A DNA stretch of 64,000 bases. Source: Candidatus Latescibacterota bacterium. GTDB lineage: Bacteria > Latescibacterota > UBA2968 > UBA8231. The stretch is taken from NCBI GenBank assembly GCA_965200315.1, contig OZ241362.1, positions 1,216,001 through 1,280,000 on the forward strand, written 5' to 3'. Below are positions 1,892-12,516 of the stretch, one piece after another (position 1 is the stretch's first letter; each line of letters starts with the position of its first letter). The notes under the pieces were generated by a model. It was not told the DNA's origin, searched no databases, and was given only the letters and a program-made list of their open reading frames with translations. Made by a program: the position numbers and the translations under genes.

Positions 1892-1935
1892 TTAATACCC
1901 TTATTACTACCCTCACTCAAGCGTTACTACCCTTA
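1892..1935 (+). repeat. Three 12-bp repeats TTA(A/C)TACCCT(T/C)A spanning the fic stop codon
   Basis: ttaataccctta (1892-1903), ttactaccctca (1904-1915), ttactaccctta (1924-1935). Confidence 0.7.
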
Positions 1936-2978
1936 TTCCCGAGAAAACGCCAGCGCGCACCCGGGCCTCGGCCGCTGCAAGCTACATCGCCGGATTTCTT
2001 TAGCTCCGCTAAAAGAGTGCGAATCCATTCGCGGCCGACGCCGGGACAGGCATACTCTATGTCACTCAGGCGGAATTCGCCCGGTTGGGCGCGGATGGCG
2101 GCGAGCACCAGCTCGGACTTGGCACCCCGTGGAGCCTTGATCTGACCGGCGCGTTCCTCCAACCCGACGTAAGCGCGGCGGATGATCGCAAAGAAGAAAT
2201 TGAACCAAGGCGTCAGTTCGTGTTTGCCGTCGTGCCAGCGCTGTGAACTGAGCCGGAGGCATTCGTAGTAGGACTCCCGGGATTCCTCAATAAGGCGTTC
2301 CAAGCTGATGTAGCGACCAACCTCGTAGCCGTGCTGGTAGAGCGCCAACAGGGTGAGCAGCCGGGACACGCGACCGTTGCCGTCCCGGAAAGGATGAATG
2401 CAAAGGAAATCCAAGACGAGAGCGGCGATGGCGATGAGTGGTGGGATATTCTCCTGGTCAATAGCGTGCTGGTAATGCTGACAGAGTTGTTCTACAGCCG
2501 CCGAGGTCTCCGCAGCCTTCACGCAGCGGAACCGGACCACCGGGGCCTGTCCGGGCAGGAACTCCACGATGTCGTTATCGACTCGTTTGAATTGGCCCGC
2601 GTCGCCGCTGGCGGATTGGCAAAGAGCATGTAGGCGTTGCAGGGTATCCGGCGTGATAGAAAGAGCGGCGTAGTCGGAGTGAATTTCGTTCAAGGCGCGG
2701 CGATAGTCCTGAATCTCCTGCTCGGAGCGGTCGCGGGGTTTGGCTTGGCCGAGCACCAGCGGGTAAAGACGGGCTTGAGCGACCGTCACTCCCTCGATGC
2801 GATTAGAGGATTCAGCACTCTGAATGACAGCTATGTCGCGGAGCGCTTTGAGCGCTTGTGGCGACTGGCGCGTGAATAGCTCCTGTTTGCCCCTCGACTC
2901 GGCGATGTCGTTGAGCAACCACACCGTGCTCAGGGGTGTTTCGTGGTCGCGTAGGCGGTTGTTGCGGAAAGAATTCAT
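1917..2978 (-). CDS. Fic family protein (class II-like) with probable C-terminal winged helix
   Basis: Canonical HPFRDGNGRVSR motif; N-terminal autoinhibitory SNRIEG motif. Confidence 0.92.
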   Translation of the reverse strand: MNSFRNNRLRDHETPLSTVWLLNDIAESRGKQELFTRQSPQALKALRDIAVIQSAESSNRIEGVTVAQARLYPLVLGQAKPRDRSEQEIQDYRRALNEIHSDYAALSITPDTLQRLHALCQSASGDAGQFKRVDNDIVEFLPGQAPVVRFRCVKAAETSAAVEQLCQHYQHAIDQENIPPLIAIAALVLDFLCIHPFRDGNGRVSRLLTLLALYQHGYEVGRYISLERLIEESRESYYECLRLSSQRWHDGKHELTPWFNFFFAIIRRAYVGLEERAGQIKAPRGAKSELVLAAIRAQPGEFRLSDIEYACPGVGREWIRTLLAELKKSGDVACSGRGPGARWRFLGNKGSNA

Positions 2979-3084: not shown

Positions 3085-4050
3085 CTATAAAAAATGTTTA
3101 CCAGCATGATCTGTAAACGAATCAGCGTCGCGGATGTATTGCATGACCGTGGCCGGGTTAGTGTGGCGGGTGACGGCCATGATTTTGTCTAGTCGGGCAT
3201 GATGCACTGCCGCGCTGGTGACAAAACCTGCCCGCAGGGAATGCCCTGCTACTTCTTTGGGGTCCAGTCCGATCCGTGCAGCATAGTGCTTGACAAGGCG
3301 TGGGATATCAGAATGGTGCAGCGGCTTGCCTTGCACATGGCCACCACGCTTCATCGTCTGAAATAGTGGGCCGCACATGATCCCCGACGCATTAAGCCAC
3401 ATCTGAAGACGATGGACAGGACGGATAACACGGCCGTCCAAGATGGCGATTTTTTGCCCCCTCCCCTGTTGATCCGTCTTGGAGTGCCGGATGGTAAGAA
3501 ACATGCGCTGACTCGCTTCCTCTGTAGGTTCAAAGAACTCAACATCCTCTACGGTCAGACCGCATATCTCCGAGCGCCGCAGGGCACCCGCAAAGCCGAG
3601 GGCCAAAATAGCCGCGTCGCGCCGCCCGATGGTCGTATCAGCACATTGAGAAAGCATGGCTTGAATATGGTATTCCCTGAGTGCTTCTACTCGACGACAC
3701 GCGGTACCTTTGAGCCGGGCCAACCCTTTGAGGGTGGCACGGACCACGGGATGATTGGTCGGAGACGACTTTCCGGCGTCGGTATATTTCTTGTTGATGG
3801 CACTCTTATAGAGCGTCACAGTGCCCATAGATAGCACGGTACCGTGCTGGCTCGGCTTTGTCGCTAGATGCACGAGAAAACGCGCTACCATATCCGGGGA
3901 GGCAGATAACGGGTCGTCAAGATGCTCTTTTGTGCAGTAGTTGGTGAACCTAGACCATCCTTTTTCATAGGCAACGCGGGTATTTGTCGCCAATGCGGAG
4001 GAAAGGACATTGGTATGGAAACCTTGCTCAATCATGGCTGAGGATCTCAA
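3085..4050 (-). CDS. Cre-like site-specific tyrosine recombinase (putative invertase/integrase)
   Basis: Catalytic residues intact: GALRRSE (R), HSKTDQ (K), GHSLRAG (HxxR), TRH, MQYIR (Y). Start is probably TTG at 4050 (GGAG RBS) or ATG at 4035. Confidence 0.92.
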   Translation of the reverse strand: MRSSAMIEQGFHTNVLSSALATNTRVAYEKGWSRFTNYCTKEHLDDPLSASPDMVARFLVHLATKPSQHGTVLSMGTVTLYKSAINKKYTDAGKSSPTNHPVVRATLKGLARLKGTACRRVEALREYHIQAMLSQCADTTIGRRDAAILALGFAGALRRSEICGLTVEDVEFFEPTEEASQRMFLTIRHSKTDQQGRGQKIAILDGRVIRPVHRLQMWLNASGIMCGPLFQTMKRGGHVQGKPLHHSDIPRLVKHYAARIGLDPKEVAGHSLRAGFVTSAAVHHARLDKIMAVTRHTNPATVMQYIRDADSFTDHAGKHFL

Positions 4051-4111
4051 TGGTAACTCCTTTGTTAGGGTTTTAGTGTCTTGAAACTTGCAAGATATGA
4101 CCGAACAACAT

Positions 4112-4283
4112 GATATTGCCATTTATCGAGGAGTTCTTACTGGTTACAATGACGCCTTTATCATTGATAACAACACTAAAGAAGCATTGATCGCCGAAGA
4201 TCCACGCTCTGCCGACATCCTCAAGCCTGTGCTGCGCGGACGGGATATAAAACGCTATCGGGCAGAGTGGGCAGGCCTGTGGC
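4112..4283 (+). repeat. Inverted repeat IR1-left (172 bp, imperfect)
   Basis: Pairs with 5534-5705; perfect sub-blocks of 12, 29 and 33 bp. Confidence 0.93.
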
Positions 4284-4425
4284 TAATTGACACACACAAC
4301 GGGTACGGCAGTGTTACGGCTGTCGATGTAGATGAATACCCAGCCATCAAAAATCATTTGGACCAGTTCTATTTCCAACTGAAAAAGCGGCAAGATAAAG
4401 GTAGGACACCGTATAATCTTCGTAA

Positions 4426-4462
4426 TTGCGCTTACCACGAAGTATTTGAAAAGGAAAAGCTG
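4426..4462 (+). repeat. Inverted repeat IR2-left (37 bp, perfect)
   Basis: TTGCGCTTACCACGAAGTATTTGAAAAGGAAAAGCTG is the exact reverse complement of 5328-5364. Confidence 0.95.
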
Positions 4463-4713
4463 GTGTGGATGGATCTGACGGAACAAGGACGGTTTGCGTA
4501 TGACGTGGATGGCCTGTTCTGCTTAAACACGGCATTTATTATGTCAGGTCCATCAATCAAATATTTATGCGCCCTGCTTAATTCTAATCTGATAACTTGG
4601 TTTATGAGAAACACTGCTCTGAGTTCTGGAATGGGTGTTACGAGATGGATTAATGCTTCCGTAGAATCAATCCCCATTCCGAAAATCACTATAGAAGAGC
4701 AACTTTCATTCAT

Positions 4714-4739
4714 CCGGTTGGTTGACCGTATCTTGAAGG
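4714..4739 (+). repeat. Inverted repeat IR3-left (26 bp, 2 mismatches)
   Basis: CCGGTTGGTTGACCGTATCTTGAAGG versus the reverse complement of 5048-5073. Confidence 0.75.
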
Positions 4740-4922
4740 TCAAAATATCTAACCCAACAGCCGATGTCAGCGATCAGGAGACAGAGATAGACCGCCTCAT
4801 CTATGCCCTCTATGGTCTGAAAAAAAAAGAAATCGCAGCGGTATCAGTAAAGGACAAATCATAGGTAAATCAAATTCTAAACGGCACCAAAACATAGTTT
4901 TATGAGCCGTCACGTTGATCGT

Positions 4923-7900
4923 CTAGGGTAGAAGATGCTCCTCTACTGCGAATATCTCCGTCTCCGTCAGTCCGTACAATTCGTAAACCTGCATATTAAT
5001 TTTGGCTTCAGTGGCAGATACATCGGCTTCCGGGTTAGTCGCTTTAGCCTTCAGGATACGGTCAACTAACCGGGCAAAAGGATGCTGCTTTACGGTAGGG
5101 ACTTGGGGAATAGGCAGGCGTTCTACCACAAATTTATCCCATTGGGTGAGTCCCATACCAGTCGTTACTGCGGTGTTCCGGACCTGCCAAGTTATGAGGC
5201 GACTATTCAAAATCGCACAGAGGTATTTGAGAGAATTTCCAGTGACAACAAATGCCTTTTGGTTGCAGAAAATAGTCTCCGAGTCGGAATATGCGAATCT
5301 GCCATTTGGTGCCATGTGCATCCAAAACAGCTTTTCCTTTTCAAATACTTCGTGGTAAGCGCAAGTATCCTGTAATTCGTACCAAGTATGCACAGTCTTT
5401 TTTCTTGATTTAGTGCCATTCGGAAGGGTTCTGCCCGATTGTTCTAATCTCGCTTCGCCAAAAGATAGCAGGTGTCTTTTCACGGCTGGATAGTCATCAA
5501 TGTTGAGTGCGAGAGCAGGAAATGTTGCTATCGGCCACAGGCCTGCCCACTCTGCCCGATAGCGTTGAATATCTCGGCCTCTCAGCACAGGCTTGAGGAT
5601 ATCGGCAGAGCGTGGATCTTCGGCTATCAACGCTTCTTTAGTGTTGTTATCAATGATAAAAGCATCGTTGTAGCCCGTCTTAATTCCGTAGTTAATGGCA
5701 ATATCCCACTCTTTCAGCGGCGTTCCCGCAGATTCCATCTTATCCATAATGCTCTGTTCAATGACCGATAGCGCACTCCACGGCTTTTCACCTTGCGGAC
5801 GCAACGTTCCCCACAGGGATTCGTCGGGTGGAAAGGTTTTATCGGACAAACGATCCATGTCCACGGCCTTGCCGATTTCATTACTCTTGCCATTGCGTAC
5901 TATCAGGACATTGGTATCCACAATGGCTTTTTCAAAAACATCTTTGCCCATTTCCAGCAGGCGCATCGGCGTGTGATGCTCAAAGAAGTAGCGGCGCAAG
6001 GCTTTGCCGTACTCTGCCTTGAGCCAGCTATTAGATGTGATATAGGCCAGCAAGCCTTGGGCTGGTTTGAGCAGCCGGCAGCCGCGCTCGTAGAAAAGCT
6101 GGTAAATGTCGCCAGTGCGGGCGAACGTTGCGTAGCCAGCATCCTTGTAGAGCTTGCCCAGTTCGCCGCTGTTTTTCTGCAATTGAATGTACGGCGGATT
6201 CCCGATCACCACATCAAACCCATCCTCCACTCCAAACATATACTCAGCGTCGAACCAACCCGCTTTCTCATTCTGGTCGTAGGGATCCCACCGCGCAATT
6301 TTACTAGCGTCATCTTCGGGAAGGCCGGCGGAAATCAGTTCCTTTGCCAATGCCTTACGCAACCGTTTGTCCTCATCTCTACAGGCCAGTTTTTTCCGGC
6401 GCGTGGTCGCGTGAAAATGCCGCTCGCGATTTTTCACCAAGTTTGTTTTCAGGGCCTCTATTTGCTGACGGAACAAGTCTAATTGATCCGCTTCCTCGAT
6501 TCCCAACAGCGTGTTCGCCGCCACAAAGCGCGTCTCCAGATTCGGCAGCGGCTTGATGCCAAAGTTCTCGACAGCCGCGTCGGCTTCCTGCTCAATCGCC
6601 AGCGAAATGAAAAAGCGCAGTTTGGCGATCTGGCAAGCGACCGGCTGAATATCCACGCCAAATATGCTGTTCTGAATCAAGTATAGCTTGCGCCCAAAAT
6701 CGCCCGAATACCGCTCGAAAATTTCGCTGATTCCGGTTAGTTCGTCATTGCGTTCCTGTTGATTCCGGGTATCGAAAGCCGCCGCGGCTCGTTGAGTAGC
6801 GCGCTCCTTTTGCAATGCCTGCCAGCGTTTATTCTCAGGGTCAATCCGCTGCAACGCCAAGGTCAGCTTGTGCAGTATGCCTATCGGAAACGCACCGGAA
6901 CCGACCGCCGGATCAAGCACCTTGATCTCCGCAATCGCCCGCACAATGCTCTCGGCTTCGGCTTCTTTAAAAAGTTCATTGGCATCATCAAATGCGTCTT
7001 CATAATCCAACAAATAGCGCAAACGATCTCGCCAGCACACCGCGCCGCCATCGTCGGGCTGCGCTCTTTCCGCCAGCGCTGCCACCAACGCCTCCTCCAC
7101 CATGTAATCCACCACAACGCGGGGTGTATAGTACGATCCAGTCTGCTTGCGCGCTGTCTCGCGGGTCTCTGGATTGTAGGCCGCCAGCAAGTTCTCAAAG
7201 ACCTTGCCGAGCAGTTCCGGGTCCAGAGCAACCTCCTGCTCCGCGGGCGTGTTTTCCTCCACCGTGAATTTGTAGTGGTTGAGCAGGGGAAATAGGCCGG
7301 CGGCGTCAAAAAATAGCCGGTTGGGAATGGACAAAAGCCCGTATTCCTTAGTGCCGGGTTTGATTGCGTTGTCGGAAAAGCAGTCAACGCGCCAGCCGCC
7401 ATAGCGCGTCGCTTCCTCGCTGTCCAAACAATCGAACAAGCCGCCGTTGATGAATGGGGTCTGGGCGAACAGGCCCAGCAGCGCATCAGGATCGCTAATC
7501 TCCCGTTTGTAGCGATACAAAGAAAAATTGCGGTGCGTGGCGTTTTGCGCTTGACTGAACCCACGTTTGTCGAGCTCGGTGTTCAGGGTGGCGAAAAACA
7601 GGTTTTGCAGCACCGCACGATAGTAGGAATCGCCGGTGTCGCGGTTGTAGTTTTTTAGCAGCAGGCGGATTCGTGCCTCGACGAACAGGTCGCCGGCAGT
7701 CAGCCCCTTCTCCTTCATAAACCAGACGAACAGCAGGCGCGTGATGAGGCGAATGACGTGCTCTTCGGCGGGCAGGGTGCGGGCCTGAGCGGTGGGAAAC
7801 CGGGCCTCGCCGACGGCGCGATCAAACCAAGTGAACAGCTCCCGGTAAAACCGTCGGTTGAGCTCTTCGGTGTCCAGTTTGTCTAACCACGCAGCCAGCA

Positions 7901-8543
7901 GGCCATCAAAATTGTGCGGCTTGTCGTGAGCATCCATCCACTCGGCACATTCGGCTAGCGACAGTTCGGCCAAAACATCCAAGTGGGCGCGATGGGGGCT
8001 GCCCGGGTCAATTTCCCGTATCAGCGACACATGGCCTAGCACATCGCGCCTTGGGTCGCGCTGGTGCTCGCGACGATGTACAAAGGCCAAGGTGAGCTTC
8101 TTATCGGCGGTTCTGAACAAAACGACCGAGGGTTGGACCAAGCGCTTGTTGAGCTCGCGGGTGAACTGCGCGTACTGGCCACGTGCGTAGGTTGCTTCCT
8201 TCAGTTCCACGGCGAAGAAGATAAAGCTCTGCTGCCGTCCCTTGTCGAAAAAAGCGGCCGTAAACCCAAACGCCGGCTGATTAGTTGAGGCGATTTCGTC
8301 GCTAGTAAACTGAAAGACAAGCCGCACGGATTGGACGTTTTCGCAGAAGGCCTGCTCCGTTTTGGTGTTTCCTTTCTCGGCGGGGAACTGCGCGATGAAG
8401 TCGGCAACATCGCCTGTCTGCTCAGGCAAGGTGCGCTCGCTGCGGTAGCCAAGAACAGCCAGTACGTCTTGCGTTGCCGCGGCAAAATCGCCCTGCGGCA
8501 TGGCCGCAAGAACGGCGCGTACATCCTCTTTTATGCTGCTCAT
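4923..8543 (-). CDS. Type IIG-like (Eco57I/TaqI_C) restriction-modification enzyme / N6-adenine methyltransferase
   Basis: GSYYTP, motif I VLDPAVGSGAF, motif IV IGNPPY, C-terminal TRD. The start at 8543 overlaps the helicase stop (ATGA) and has an RBS. An endonuclease active site was not confidently identified. Confidence 0.9.
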   Translation of the reverse strand: MSSIKEDVRAVLAAMPQGDFAAATQDVLAVLGYRSERTLPEQTGDVADFIAQFPAEKGNTKTEQAFCENVQSVRLVFQFTSDEIASTNQPAFGFTAAFFDKGRQQSFIFFAVELKEATYARGQYAQFTRELNKRLVQPSVVLFRTADKKLTLAFVHRREHQRDPRRDVLGHVSLIREIDPGSPHRAHLDVLAELSLAECAEWMDAHDKPHNFDGLLAAWLDKLDTEELNRRFYRELFTWFDRAVGEARFPTAQARTLPAEEHVIRLITRLLFVWFMKEKGLTAGDLFVEARIRLLLKNYNRDTGDSYYRAVLQNLFFATLNTELDKRGFSQAQNATHRNFSLYRYKREISDPDALLGLFAQTPFINGGLFDCLDSEEATRYGGWRVDCFSDNAIKPGTKEYGLLSIPNRLFFDAAGLFPLLNHYKFTVEENTPAEQEVALDPELLGKVFENLLAAYNPETRETARKQTGSYYTPRVVVDYMVEEALVAALAERAQPDDGGAVCWRDRLRYLLDYEDAFDDANELFKEAEAESIVRAIAEIKVLDPAVGSGAFPIGILHKLTLALQRIDPENKRWQALQKERATQRAAAAFDTRNQQERNDELTGISEIFERYSGDFGRKLYLIQNSIFGVDIQPVACQIAKLRFFISLAIEQEADAAVENFGIKPLPNLETRFVAANTLLGIEEADQLDLFRQQIEALKTNLVKNRERHFHATTRRKKLACRDEDKRLRKALAKELISAGLPEDDASKIARWDPYDQNEKAGWFDAEYMFGVEDGFDVVIGNPPYIQLQKNSGELGKLYKDAGYATFARTGDIYQLFYERGCRLLKPAQGLLAYITSNSWLKAEYGKALRRYFFEHHTPMRLLEMGKDVFEKAIVDTNVLIVRNGKSNEIGKAVDMDRLSDKTFPPDESLWGTLRPQGEKPWSALSVIEQSIMDKMESAGTPLKEWDIAINYGIKTGYNDAFIIDNNTKEALIAEDPRSADILKPVLRGRDIQRYRAEWAGLWPIATFPALALNIDDYPAVKRHLLSFGEARLEQSGRTLPNGTKSRKKTVHTWYELQDTCAYHEVFEKEKLFWMHMAPNGRFAYSDSETIFCNQKAFVVTGNSLKYLCAILNSRLITWQVRNTAVTTGMGLTQWDKFVVERLPIPQVPTVKQHPFARLVDRILKAKATNPEADVSATEAKINMQVYELYGLTETEIFAVEEHLLP
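5048..5073 (-). repeat. Inverted repeat IR3-right
   Basis: Partner of 4714-4739. Confidence 0.75.
5328..5364 (-). repeat. Inverted repeat IR2-right
   Basis: Partner of 4426-4462. Confidence 0.95.
5534..5705 (-). repeat. Inverted repeat IR1-right
   Basis: Partner of 4112-4283; same length, no indels. Confidence 0.93.
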
Positions 8544-8893
8544 GTTGTCTCTTTCCTCGTGCTCATTGTCAAGAGGGTGCCGACTCTCTGTAAAATTGCA
8601 TCTACTGTCTGCGTGGGCAAAGAGCATATAAACGCTGTATTTCTTGCCCGCCAATCCATACTCTTGACTTGATCTGTTAGAATAACGCCCGGCACATCCT
8701 GCCTCTCGGGCATGGCGACTTCAAAGGGATACCCTTTCACGTGACTGGTAACTGGGCAAAAAATCGCCAAACGGGTCTTGCTGTTATAAGCCCTCGGTGA
8801 GAGTACAACGGCGGGGCGACGGCCACCTTGCTCATGCCCTGCTTGCGGATTGAAGTCAATCCATACGACATCGCCGCGCTGTTTTAGCTCCAT
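8540..8893 (-). other. mazF: MazF/PemK endoribonuclease domain within the helicase ORF
   Basis: RGDVVWIDFNPQAGHEQGGRRPAVVLSP...CPVTSHVKGYPFEV...ILTDQVKSMDWRAR closely parallels E. coli MazF (GHRPAVVLSP, KGYPFEV, DQVKSIAWRAR). Confidence 0.9.
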
Positions 8894-11527
8894 CTGAATC
8901 GACTCAGATGGGTATTCGTTTAACGGATCGTCGTCGCCGCTAGCGGTGGCGTCCGCCAAGGCCATGCGTGCTTGTACGCGGCTTTGCAGGCGCAGATAAA
9001 CCTCGAGGTCCTTGGTAGGCCAATAGTTAATCATCCACACCGACTGGTTGCGGCTGCCGATGCGGTCAATGCGCCCTAAGCGCTGAATGATACGCACTGG
9101 ATTCCAGTGGATGTCGTAGTTGAGTGCGGTATCGCAATCCTGAAGGTTCTGCCCCTCTGAGATGCAATCGGTGGCAATCAGCAAGTCGATTTCGTCGGTG
9201 CTATTGGCCTGCCCGTGTGCCCGTGGCGCGAAGAGGGTCAGAATGGCGTTGAAGTTGTTAGGACCGAAAGCGGTGCGCGTTGCGTCCCCAGAGACCATCG
9301 CCATGTTCAACCCCAATTCGTGCACCAAGTCCGCCAAGTTTTCGTACAGATACTCCGCCGTATCCTTGAAGGTGGTAAACACCAGCAGCTTGCGGTTGAT
9401 CCGGCCATCCTTGTCGGTCGTCGGGTGTTGTGCTCTGTCCCGAATGTGCGCCTTAATCTCTCGCAGCTTACCGTCCCGTTCCGGCGTGATAATACTGACC
9501 CGTTCATAGACCGCCTCCAGAGTCTTCTTATCCTTCAGCAAGTCCTCTTTCCAACGGGGCAAATCCAACTCGCGCAGATGGTAGGGGGTGCGTGCCCGAT
9601 TGATCTGAAATTCCTCGTCATCTTCATCGTCATCCGGGAGGGTATCCGCTCGCTCGTCCAACAGCAGGTTTTGCTCATAGCGGTCTATCTTTTCTAGCAG
9701 GTCGTCAATTTTGCCGATAGTGCGCTTGAGCGTTTCCGTCAGAGAGTGGGCCGAACTTTCTAGGCGTTTCAGAAAGTTGACTCGTATCATACTGATGAGG
9801 AAACGCTCGCGGTCAGCCTGATTAAACCGCAGTTGCTTCTTTTCGTCCGCCAACCGTTGCTTGGCTTCGGGGCTGGTAACATAGCTTGACGGCCGGTAAA
9901 TGGATAAGGCGAACTGCTCAATTTGCGCGGATAATTTTTTGTACGAAAGCTCGTCCTCTAAATCCGTCAGCGGGTAGCAATTCTCCGGCTGTTGCCGCGT
10001 GGGGAACTGACCGATCCGGTCTATTTCTTCGGCGTAGAATTGCTTGATCTGCCGCCGTGAGCGAGCAATGGAAATGCCGCCCAACAGCTTAAAAAAATCA
10101 GCACCCAACGTCTCCAGTAACGTCGTCTTGTCTTTTTTGACACTCTTCTCCGCTTTCGTCTCCCATGCCTTAAACTCCTTTTGCGCCTGACCTAAGAGCG
10201 TGCCGATATGGCCGATGCCCAGACTTTCCCGGAACATGTCCTCGCGCTTTTCGGTCATCAGATAAATTTGATTGCGGAGGTCAATAAGCGAGGTGTTGAC
10301 CGGCGTCGCTGAAAGCATCAGCACCTTCGTTTGGGTTCCAGCCTTGATGACTTCTTCTAACAGCCGCGAGTAGCGGCTGTGGCGAATCCTGCCGTCTTCG
10401 TCGAGACGAGACTTGGAGTCATTGCGAAAATTGTGAGATTCGTCGATGACCACCATGTCAAAATTGCGCCAGTTGAACTGGGCCAGATCAATGTCGCCGG
10501 CTTGCCCACTGCTGCGGGACAAGTCCGTATGCGATAGCAAGGTGTAGCCAAAGCGGTCTTCGAGGAAGGGATTGCCAGTTCGGGCGTTATATGCTGGATA
10601 CAGCGCCCAATTTTCGCGCAACTTTTTGGGGCATAACACCAGCACTCGTTCGTTACGCAATTCAAAGAACTTGATAACCGCTAACGCCGTATAGGTCTTT
10701 CCCAAGCCGACCGCGTCGGCCAAAATACAGCCATTGTGCCGCCGCAGGTGAGCGATCACGCTCTTAGCTCCGTCTTTTTGGAAGTCGTACAGCGCGTTCC
10801 AGACGGCGGTATCGTATAGGTGTGTATCTTTTAGGTGGCTTTCGCCGGCTTTTCTCGCTTCGATGTCTTCCTGGAACAACTCGTAGAGCGTTTTATAGTA
10901 GATCAACTCCGGCGCGTACTCTCTGCCTATCCGCGCCAGCGCGTCCAGCACGTCCTTTTTGACATCCTTGGTCAGCGTCTTGTCCGCCCACAGATCGTCA
11001 AACCATTGTTGTAGTTCGGTACAAGTAGCTGCGTTTTGGGTTGCCAAGTTGATTTCCACGTTGGCACTCGTCCCGCTGCCTAGACCGCCGCGAGTAAAGT
11101 TGGAGCTGCCAACCACCGCTGTGCCGCCATTGGCTGATTCGGTGAGATACATCTTGCCGTGCAGAAAGTTGGATTTGCCAATGGAGCGAATTTTGACGCC
11201 TTTGCTGCTTATCCATGCTGTGCATTGACGAGCAAGGTATTTCTGTTGCAATGCGTACAGAGGCGATAGCCCGTCTTCAGTCAGGTTGAAGGCTTTTTGC
11301 GCTTTCTCGCCGGGGTCTAACTCGCCAACCGATGCCGGATCACCAAAGAGAAAACGCACATCCTTAACACCGTTCAATTCGCTTTGCAGGGCCTCGTACC
11401 CATAAATGGTGAAATACGCCGAGACGAGGCGAAACACCTCAGCGGCTGACAGGTGCGGCCGCAAATAATCGACAACTCGACGCTGGCGATTGTCTAGGAT
11501 GTGTTCGATGTGTTCGTATTCTGCCAT
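8540..11527 (-). CDS. PLD-domain SNF2-type helicase with in-frame C-terminal MazF/PemK domain
   Basis: PLD-like HGKMY...GSSNFT; Walker A ADAVGLGKT; DESH; SATP; QRLGRIDR. The last ~118 aa are MazF-like. Start is probably ATG at 11527. Confidence 0.9.
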   Translation of the reverse strand: MAEYEHIEHILDNRQRRVVDYLRPHLSAAEVFRLVSAYFTIYGYEALQSELNGVKDVRFLFGDPASVGELDPGEKAQKAFNLTEDGLSPLYALQQKYLARQCTAWISSKGVKIRSIGKSNFLHGKMYLTESANGGTAVVGSSNFTRGGLGSGTSANVEINLATQNAATCTELQQWFDDLWADKTLTKDVKKDVLDALARIGREYAPELIYYKTLYELFQEDIEARKAGESHLKDTHLYDTAVWNALYDFQKDGAKSVIAHLRRHNGCILADAVGLGKTYTALAVIKFFELRNERVLVLCPKKLRENWALYPAYNARTGNPFLEDRFGYTLLSHTDLSRSSGQAGDIDLAQFNWRNFDMVVIDESHNFRNDSKSRLDEDGRIRHSRYSRLLEEVIKAGTQTKVLMLSATPVNTSLIDLRNQIYLMTEKREDMFRESLGIGHIGTLLGQAQKEFKAWETKAEKSVKKDKTTLLETLGADFFKLLGGISIARSRRQIKQFYAEEIDRIGQFPTRQQPENCYPLTDLEDELSYKKLSAQIEQFALSIYRPSSYVTSPEAKQRLADEKKQLRFNQADRERFLISMIRVNFLKRLESSAHSLTETLKRTIGKIDDLLEKIDRYEQNLLLDERADTLPDDDEDDEEFQINRARTPYHLRELDLPRWKEDLLKDKKTLEAVYERVSIITPERDGKLREIKAHIRDRAQHPTTDKDGRINRKLLVFTTFKDTAEYLYENLADLVHELGLNMAMVSGDATRTAFGPNNFNAILTLFAPRAHGQANSTDEIDLLIATDCISEGQNLQDCDTALNYDIHWNPVRIIQRLGRIDRIGSRNQSVWMINYWPTKDLEVYLRLQSRVQARMALADATASGDDDPLNEYPSESIQMELKQRGDVVWIDFNPQAGHEQGGRRPAVVLSPRAYNSKTRLAIFCPVTSHVKGYPFEVAMPERQDVPGVILTDQVKSMDWRARNTAFICSLPTQTVDAILQRVGTLLTMSTRKETT

Positions 11528-11579
11528 ATCAGATAGGGAAAGAAGTGAATAGGCTTTCAATTGCTTAGTGATTGTCTAG

Positions 11580-11599
11580 CACCTAGGCAACCCGCAACC
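11580..11599 (+). repeat. Right direct repeat (att-like) of the island
   Basis: 17/20 identity to 1862-1881; lies just past the ubiA/mqnP stop. Confidence 0.55.
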
Positions 11600-11610
11600 A
11601 GCTTTCCACG

Positions 11611-12516
11611 TCAAAAGCGCAGCAATTCCCCCTCGCCAAACACGAGCAAGTCGGCCCAGATCGCGGCAAAGTAGATCAGGCTAACCGTGCTGTTGACCGT
11701 CATAAAAGCCGTGCTCAAGCGCGACAGGTCGTCGGCTCGCACCAGCCGGTGCTCGTACACCAGCAAGCCAGCGACTACTACTACCCCCAACCAGTACAAA
11801 AGGCTCAAGCCGGCCGCACGGCCCACGAGAAGCAACAGCACCACGAACAATAAGTGTAAGGCGCGGGCGATGTACAAAGCGCGGGCAATGCCAAAGCGGA
11901 CCGGGATGGAATGGAGTCCAGCCCGGACGTCAAAGGCGCGATCTTGGCAGGCGTAGATGATGTCAAAACCAGCGACCCAAACCAGCACCCCCAAGCAGAG
12001 CAGCAGGGGGATGGGATCAAAGCTACCAGTGACCGCAATCCAAGCGCCCAGCGGCGCCCCGCCCAAACTCAGCCCCAACACCAAATGAGAGGCCCAAGTG
12101 AAGCGCTTGGTCAGCGAGTAGAACAAGAGCACGGCCAAAACCAACGGCGACAGATAAAAGCACAGCGGGTTGAGCAGGTAAGCTGACAAGACCAACATTA
12201 GGGCGGACAAAACCACAAACAACCCCACGGCCCGAGGCGAGACCACGCCTTGCGGCAGCTCGCGGTTTTGGGTGCGGGGATTGGCCGCGTCGAGGTGGCG
12301 GTCAACGAGGCGATTAAAACCCATCGCCGCGCTACGTGCCCCTACCATAGCCAGCGCGATCCAGCCGATCTGGGCCGGGGTAATGCCCGTGTACGCGGCG
12401 GCCAGCAAGGCACCGCTAAAGGCAAAGGGCAGGGCAAAGACGCTGTGGGAGAATTTGATCATGCGGCCGTACACCGCAATGGCCTGCAAGAGAGCCATCT
12501 CGACCTTCCTCGACAA
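11611..12516 (-). CDS. UbiA-family prenyltransferase (MqnP-like)
   Basis: IKFSHSVFALPFA, NRLVDRHLDAANPRT, FDIIYACQD; multi-TM; in the mqn cluster. Confidence 0.9.
   Translation of the reverse strand: MSRKVEMALLQAIAVYGRMIKFSHSVFALPFAFSGALLAAAYTGITPAQIGWIALAMVGARSAAMGFNRLVDRHLDAANPRTQNRELPQGVVSPRAVGLFVVLSALMLVLSAYLLNPLCFYLSPLVLAVLLFYSLTKRFTWASHLVLGLSLGGAPLGAWIAVTGSFDPIPLLLCLGVLVWVAGFDIIYACQDRAFDVRAGLHSIPVRFGIARALYIARALHLLFVVLLLLVGRAAGLSLLYWLGVVVVAGLLVYEHRLVRADDLSRLSTAFMTVNSTVSLIYFAAIWADLLVFGEGELLRF

Follow-up and report, generated by a model that had tools for sequence, protein, structure and literature searches.

The window, a stretch of 64,000 nucleotides from a Candidatus Latescibacterota bacterium (assembly GCA_965200315.1, contig OZ241362.1, positions 1,216,001 to 1,280,000), encodes on its reverse strand a protein in which a PLD-SNF2 helicase is fused to a MazF toxin, followed directly by the gene of an adenine methyltransferase (Table 1). 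An earlier note on this DNA, made by a model from the letters and their open reading frames (ORFs), had described the two parts as a single ORF, and both the open frame and the Pfam domain assignments confirm this. PLDc_2 occupies residues 110-191 of the chimeric protein, SNF2-rel_dom/ResIII residues 257-421, Helicase_C residues 722-835 and PemK_toxin (PF02452) residues 894-996, the last with an E-value of 1.2e-26 and a score of 93.4 bits against a cut-off of 23.1. When counted from a TTG at 11560 the reading frame (8540..11560) stays open for 1006 codons; the relatives of the helicase begin with MAEYEH, which corresponds in the alignment to the ATG at 11527, and this ATG is therefore the likely start. 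At the other end the TGA stop codon (8542-8540) overlaps the ATG of the methyltransferase gene (8543-8541) as ATGA, just as the earlier note had reported, and the eight last codons of the chimeric ORF together with its stop are methyltransferase leader sequence, common to the leader in genome G067. The toxin domain had been called essentially complete, which is accurate in that the match covers profile positions 1-108 of 109, although the first nine and the last three codons are missing by comparison with free homologues. An internal ATG at 8893, suggested as a source of free MazF, does exist, but it is a conserved helicase methionine codon (within IQMEL in 6/6 aligned relatives) and not a mazF start, and a promoter and terminator scan of 8400-11800 gave one promoter-like site where 2.0 were expected, so that an internal promoter ahead of it is unsupported.

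Table 1. Features of the helicase-MazF locus and its neighbours (positions in the window)
Feature	Position	Strand	Remarks
Chimeric ORF helicase::MazF	8540..11527	-	995 codons from ATG at 11527
Helicase-derived part	8883..11527	-	PLD ~10988-11233, SNF2/ResIII ~10298-10792, Helicase_C ~9056-9397
Deletion junction	8882..8883		inside codon AAA (8884-8882)
mazF-derived segment	8566..8882	-	about codons 10-113 of a ~116-codon gene
Final codons (..MSTRKETT) and stop of chimeric ORF	8540..8568	-	from methyltransferase leader, not mazF
Partner gene	4923..8543	-	DUF4391-like N-terminal domain, Eco57I-type adenine methyltransferase and TaqI_C; 1206 amino acids from ATG 8543
Silent spare TaqI_C target-recognition domain	4088..4864	+	convergent with methyltransferase 3' end
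Tyrosine recombinase	3085..4122	-	adjoins spare recognition domain

The fusion of a SNF2 helicase to MazF is a new architecture, absent elsewhere in the collections searched. None of the best 120 of 7999 scored homologues of the helicase, with identities of up to 92%, contains PF02452; these proteins are mostly about 1085 amino acids long and each covers just 75-88% of the chimeric query. Residues 890-1006, scored alone against proteins of 553-1761 amino acids (5.8 billion clusters), gave no matches. Across 60 related genomes the helicase matches without exception break off near residue 896, and the MazF matches are all free-standing ORFs of about 117 amino acids at other chromosomal sites. 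No description of a helicase-MazF fusion was found in the literature, judged by titles and the starts of abstracts. The search for further helicase-PemK fusions that the earlier note had recommended returned none, and the unfused arrangement that it had also asked for was found in one relative, G044.

The mosaic nature of the gene is equally evident at the nucleotide level, in a search of 75 other genomes from the order with window positions 9400-8000. Positions 9400-8883 are helicase DNA, with 87-91% identity to the helicase genes of the relatives, and this homology stops at 8883. The adjoining segment, 8882-8566, is mazF DNA with 80-82% identity to free mazF genes in nine genomes of the same genus, where they sit megabases away from the helicase genes. 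From about 8569 onward the window corresponds to the methyltransferase gene with its leader, at 75-79% identity.

Relatives of the helicase continue in the alignment past IQMEL into a conserved C-terminal tail of about 190 amino acids, which the window helicase lacks. A search with the whole protein fetched 80 loci, all from other species and apparently with the records of its own genus left out, whose titles name Poribacteria, Latescibacterota, Chloroflexota, Binatia and others. The tail is present in 78/80, a relative of the methyltransferase in 62/80 and MazF in 0/80, and since the tail is kept so widely the helicase probably needs it. It is predicted to form a compact alpha/beta domain (pLDDT 78, pTM 0.74, from an alignment of 73 sequences), for which Foldseek gave no clear match in the PDB (best E-value 0.76) and VIA-align wide no clear relative (best Z 4.0; RapA C-terminal region, Z 3.5), results that point neither to a novel fold nor to a particular function. 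Downstream and on the same strand, 60 of the 75 tail-bearing loci have a partner of the DUF4391-methyltransferase type, which lies within 250 nt in 37 of them and beyond a gap filled by other genes in the remaining 23. The genes found in this slot (L117-L196, L035) encode Schlafen/AlbA_2-HATPase_c_4 proteins, ParA-like ATPases, YhcG PDDEXK nucleases and IS200 transposases, and four of the 23 occupied slots (L127, L150, L189 and L195) hold toxin-antitoxin (TA) parts, namely a PIN pair, a HigA-like antidote, a DUF4258 gene with an MqsA-like antitoxin and an AbrB/MazE-type gene.

The arrangement of most direct relevance is that of genome G044, a member of the same class and another family, in which a helicase (1079 amino acids), mazE (96 amino acids, PF04014), mazF and a methyltransferase (1229 amino acids) follow one another in this order as separate genes. 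The helicase-linked mazF of G044 (L017 7001-7351) carries a single in-frame TGA at codon 56 next to an intact mazE, which is the usual toxin-first decay. The earlier note had stated that a unique and inactive fusion, with separate genes in the relatives, would tell against its reading; of these elements, the uniqueness and, in one relative, the separate genes are what we find.

Evidence for an undeleted form comes from public sequencing runs. We compared the Logan contigs of four runs over window positions 8000-10000, two of them DNA-type runs from two studies (X1 and X2) and two metatranscriptomes made from RNA libraries (X5 and X7); these are contigs and not raw reads and indicate presence rather than the ends or levels of transcripts, the depths are contig means, and the RNA libraries may contain DNA. 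Among the X1 contigs, one runs up to 8882 (depth 132) and the next begins at 8883 (depth 153.4), and they are joined in two ways: by a contig of 60 nt, 8853-8912, at depth 108.2, which represents the fused path, and by a contig of 1177 nt at depth 53.6, whose ends are 8853-8882 and 8883-8912 (30 nt each) and which therefore contains 1117 extra bases relative to the fused path. The same pair is present in X2, at depths of 12.5 (fused) and 14.2 with flanking depths of 29.1 and 27.9, and X5 holds both paths at depths of 8.0 and 8.4, with a contig, 8853-9502, that begins with junction-spanning words; both X5 and X7 have contigs that depart from the window at 8882, the one of X7 with 10 differing letters. 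We read the contigs as a bubble in which the fused path is paired with one carrying the 1117 extra bases, and the depths of the two branches sum to near the flank depth (161.8 against 132/153.4 in X1 and 26.7 against 29.1/27.9 in X2). Every word in the 60-nt contig of X1 and X2 spans 8882|8883 and, as 60 nt equals 2 x (k-1), the logic of the graph points to a junction without microhomology.

Of the 1117 extra bases, 30 are seen and 1087 are unseen. A 30-nt loose end in X5 and X7 matches the boundary between the mazE stop and the mazF start of G044 (7326-7355) with two mismatches, compared with 0/200 shuffles, and the assembled genome contains no copy of it even with up to three mismatches allowed. 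Its translation reads E-V-W-stop, the end of mazE, and then V-K-S-T-E-Y-V-P ahead of Q-R-G-D, which is the N-terminus of free MazF. Their length and the relatives suggest that the remaining extra bases are helicase tail and mazE. We note also that 1117 leaves a remainder of 1 on division by 3, in agreement with a deletion that placed mazF in the reading frame of the helicase. The fused and intact forms in X1 share flanks with zero differing letters over 2 kb and the deletion is thus young; single-nucleotide polymorphism (SNP) haplotypes are seen within the same 2 kb in X2, X5 and X7. The symbiont population contains both alleles, at a fused:intact ratio of about 2:1 to 1:1; the fused one accounts for about two thirds of the depth in X1 and for roughly half of it in each of X2 and X5, and such a segregating antitoxin-free allele is also new. 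A protein search with the MazF part gave no near-identical match, the best identity being 81%, nor was the undeleted allele found in a metagenome scan with the same part, which gave 80 loci with a best identity of 69% and a helicase or methyltransferase relative in 0/80.

A deletion of 1117 bp within an operon of helicase, mazEF and methyltransferase genes thus gave rise to the chimeric gene, and the second of the two readings in the earlier note, that of a recent deletion, is supported by the uniqueness of the fusion, the conserved tail, the separate genes of G044 and the allele with 1117 additional bases. The parent locus would have comprised the PLD-SNF2 motor-nuclease gene and the DUF4391-methyltransferase-recognition gene, with a mazE-mazF cassette in the variable slot between them. 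The deletion would have removed the C-terminal domain of the helicase, the spacer between helicase and mazE, the whole of mazE and the mazF start with its first nine codons, and it joined helicase codon 893 (counted from TTG 11560) in frame to mazF codon 10. A hairpin with a stem of 9 bp (CCATCTGA..TCAGATGG on the coding strand) is located at window positions 8889-8912, 6 nt from the deletion breakpoint, and could have promoted the break; a weaker form of it is seen in the helicase gene of G067.

The antitoxin appears to have been lost altogether from the assembled haplotype. The earlier note had seen no mazE nearby, and this holds both for the island and for the entire assembled genome, a single contig of 5.36 Mb, in which no cognate mazE was found. 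The genome has only two PF04014 matches; both are VapB-like genes that lie far away beside PIN toxins, and this pairing led us to reject these two AbrB/MazE-family genes as antitoxins acting in trans. The second PemK gene of the genome was likewise rejected as an antitoxin source, as it has its own, unrelated upstream partner. Searching the genome by tblastn with the MazE sequences of G044 and G012 gave a best E-value of 0.058, and the same queries found MazE in 4/4 control loci at E-values of 1.5e-38 or lower. MazE lies directly upstream in 74 of 80 metagenomic loci with close relatives of this MazF. There is also no second copy of the tail of this helicase in the assembly, the sole match being the tail of a 47% paralogue, at 36% identity.

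The toxin domain, by contrast with its lost partner, is well preserved. Compared with 120 homologues it has 0 departures from the majority residue at the 50 columns that are at least 90% conserved, whereas the others average 1.26 with a maximum of 5, and mutational inactivation is therefore not the reason for its tolerance. A degenerate MazF had been considered on the strength of six unusual residues in an alignment of 10 sequences, and was rejected against the larger set. The domain aligns over its length to solved structures of MazF endoribonucleases (E-value 2.9e-34) and is 72-81% identical to free MazF proteins; the Arg of the RPAVV motif and the Thr that the earlier note had equated with E. 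coli catalytic residues are putative catalytic residues. With the NCBIfam model for endoribonuclease MazF (NF007386) it scores 115.9 bits, under the cut-off of 120, a shortfall that fits the missing N-terminal residues.

We are inclined to think that this deletion allele is a young, tolerated decay product of TA cargo, and not an evolved helicase-controlled RNase; this seems to us the probable explanation, though well short of certain. Besides the coding sequences the deletion would have taken the mazEF promoter, ribosome-binding site and start codon, and because of this loss the toxin would be produced solely at the C-terminus of a large protein. The chimeric protein is probably weakly expressed, and low dose together with tethering is most likely what keeps MazF sublethal. 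The helicase itself is probably decaying too, lacking a domain that nearly all of its relatives keep, and the defence module as a whole is probably impaired.

Several points weigh against this explanation. The fused allele is not rare and was the one chosen by the assembly, which is more than would be expected of a harmful mutation. By its sequence the MazF domain gives every appearance of being competent. Two further points are the in-frame junction and the presence of fused-junction words in the RNA libraries, where carry-over of DNA is possible. The helicase tail and mazE are placed within the extra bases from their length and from the relatives, and that part of the intact allele is unseen. 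Finally, the loss of an antitoxin with the toxin intact is rare, with 8 such cases against 185 toxin-only and 186 both-gene pseudogenisations in one study of TA erosion (PMC13617665).

The same observations could be taken to mean that the deletion created a helicase-tethered RNase, in which MazF is gated until the motor engages foreign DNA and then serves as an abortive back-up, and which has been kept by selection. This would account for the in-frame junction and the intact conserved columns of MazF, for an allele that makes up half to two thirds of the depth in three samples from two studies with its junction words in RNA libraries, and for the ATGA overlap, which couples translation of the chimeric ORF to that of the methyltransferase gene; in a genome without MazE, moreover, some control is needed if the MazF domain is active. 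We nevertheless consider it unlikely. The fusion is unique among all of the collections searched, the founding deletion also cost the helicase a domain that is kept in 78/80 relatives, the undiverged flanks of the X1 allele leave no time for adaptation, and a junction has a 1 in 3 chance of being in frame. The earlier note had offered such a helicase-gated RNase as its first reading, and beyond the in-frame junction we found no positive support for it. The broader proposal, that an antitoxin-free MazF tethered to a restriction-type motor is held at intermediate frequency in a sponge-symbiont population, either by gating through the motor, as a single-protein switch for restriction and abortive infection, or by an intact allele that supplies MazE, seems to us improbable as well.

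The second of these possibilities supposes that the two alleles reside in the same cells, which would have multiple chromosome copies; MazE from the intact copy would neutralize the fused MazF, and the deletion would remain at an intermediate frequency, unfixed. The intermediate ratios in the runs (108:54, 12.5:14.2 and 8.0:8.4), the identical flanks of the two forms in X1 and an intact MazF domain in an assembled haplotype that lacks MazE would all be expected from this. Polyploidy has no support in the data, however, and mixed strains give the same ratios, with SNP haplotypes evident in X2, X5 and X7; contig depths cannot separate cells. We therefore attach little weight to it.

A chimera of the assembly, with a fusion that exists in no molecule, was a concern raised in the earlier note and is very hard to reconcile with the contigs. 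It is true that no single Logan contig bridges the junction under the strict rule of 31 letters on each side, but the 60-nt contig with its junction-only words is present at depths of 108.2 (X1) and 12.5 (X2), the X5 contig 8853-9502 opens with junction words, the branch depths sum roughly to the flanks, and contigs with junction-spanning words come from runs of two studies. It is just as hard to credit that the fusion is ancestral and that the 1117 bases were inserted later, since the visible end of these bases restores the nine mazF codons and the mazE stop as they are in G044 and in free cassettes, and the relatives keep the helicase tail and in no case have the fusion.

The locus shows a TA cassette in the middle of breakage within a defence operon, with the broken and intact alleles side by side in nature. 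The known kinds of process involved are TA erosion and the carriage of cargo by defence operons, and we regard the locus as a natural experiment of moderate interest. The state observed, with the antitoxin lost and the toxin domain open and conserved, is nearly forbidden under the standard view of TA decay, and it provides a natural test both of how much free MazF is tolerable and of the one-step fusion of domains to defence motors. A helicase-gated RNase should not be read from the assembly alone, because the assembly displays just one of the two alleles that occur together.

The MazF part falls into the family of ordinary chromosomal mazEF systems, whose PemK_toxin profile it shares, and in the parent allele mazE appears to overlap mazF. 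The assembled allele differs in lacking an antitoxin and a start and stop of its own, in having nine N-terminal and three C-terminal residues replaced, and in being the C-terminus of a helicase of about 880 amino acids rather than a free protein. As in the TA erosion described elsewhere, a cassette is decaying through truncation or small deletion, but there the toxin is usually inactivated first, whereas here it is the antitoxin that is gone and the toxin domain that stays open and conserved (PMC13617665).

Among defence systems, the helicase part matches the PADLOC entry C3a139 ('HKD+Snf2') with an E-value of 1.5e-100, and the window shares with this PLD-SNF2/DUF4391 module both the helicase match and the DUF4391-Eco57I-TaqI_C partner; unlike the other members, its helicase is without the C-terminal domain of about 190 amino acids and has MazF in its place. 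The module belongs to a widespread and apparently unnamed two-gene family of restriction-like character. The resemblance to class 1 DISARM proposed in the earlier note extends to the types of domain that are shared (SNF2 helicase, PLD nuclease domain and N6-adenine methylase) and no further. The DrmD model matches the C-terminal half of the helicase (PADLOC, 1.2e-35), but the family score is 140.7 bits against a cut-off of 610. There is no DUF1998 (PF09369) gene, the mark of DrmA/DrmB, near the island at 1.22 Mb, the three matches in the genome being at 1.95, 4.66 and 5.21 Mb. Class 1 DISARM comprises the SNF2 helicase DrmD, the methylase DrmMI, DrmA, DrmB and the PLD protein DrmC, whereas in the window PLD and SNF2 form one protein, which includes Helicase_C as well, and the module is thus not DISARM. 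In the case of PrrC and EcoprrI an RNase is physically coupled to a restriction enzyme and serves as a back-up, but PrrC is an anticodon nuclease of the HEPN type that forms a separate protein and has an ATPase of its own, and not a MazF fused to a motor. The Type ISP enzymes such as LlaGI have nuclease, motor, methylase and recognition domains in a single polypeptide, and their nuclease is of the Mrr type.

A second copy of the module is located in the same genome (G000:C1:5108385-5115317) and is without cargo. Its helicase is 47% identical to that of the window and has the tail, and its methyltransferase, which is 61% identical, starts about 37 nt after the helicase. Helicases that are 60-75% identical are found in genomes titled Poribacteria, Latescibacterota, Chloroflexota, Binatia, Dehalococcoidia and Spongiisociaceae, which suggests that the module is exchanged among phyla sharing one habitat. 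Split or stop-containing copies of the helicase are present in G023, G041, G046, G047 and G052, with that of G023 divided into ORFs of 424 and 682 amino acids and those of G047 and G052 each carrying a TAG, and the module thus seems to have decayed often in this clade.

The N-terminus of the methyltransferase partner resembles DUF4391 and not a known nuclease, and has 56% identity over 260 amino acids (tblastn) to the DUF4391-bearing part of a G012 protein. The PADLOC IIG model matches the partner at 1.3e-137, although the best stretch covers residues 654-1238 only. No literature was found that links DUF4391 with a helicase and a methyltransferase. The slot of G012 (L018 3949-5595) is occupied by an ORF of 548 amino acids consisting of a DUF4391-like N-terminal half and a full sigma-70 factor, which matches the MzaA anti-phage sigma model with 186 bits against a cut-off of 800. 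Two pairs of inverted repeats, 4112-4294/5523-5705 (183 nt, 85%) and 4423-4501/5289-5367 (79 nt, 78%), lie beside the tyrosine recombinase of the window, and this recombinase and the spare TaqI_C domain look like a specificity shufflon. A gene for a Fic/DOC-family protein (window positions 1917-2978) is situated beside the recombinase, just beyond the island.

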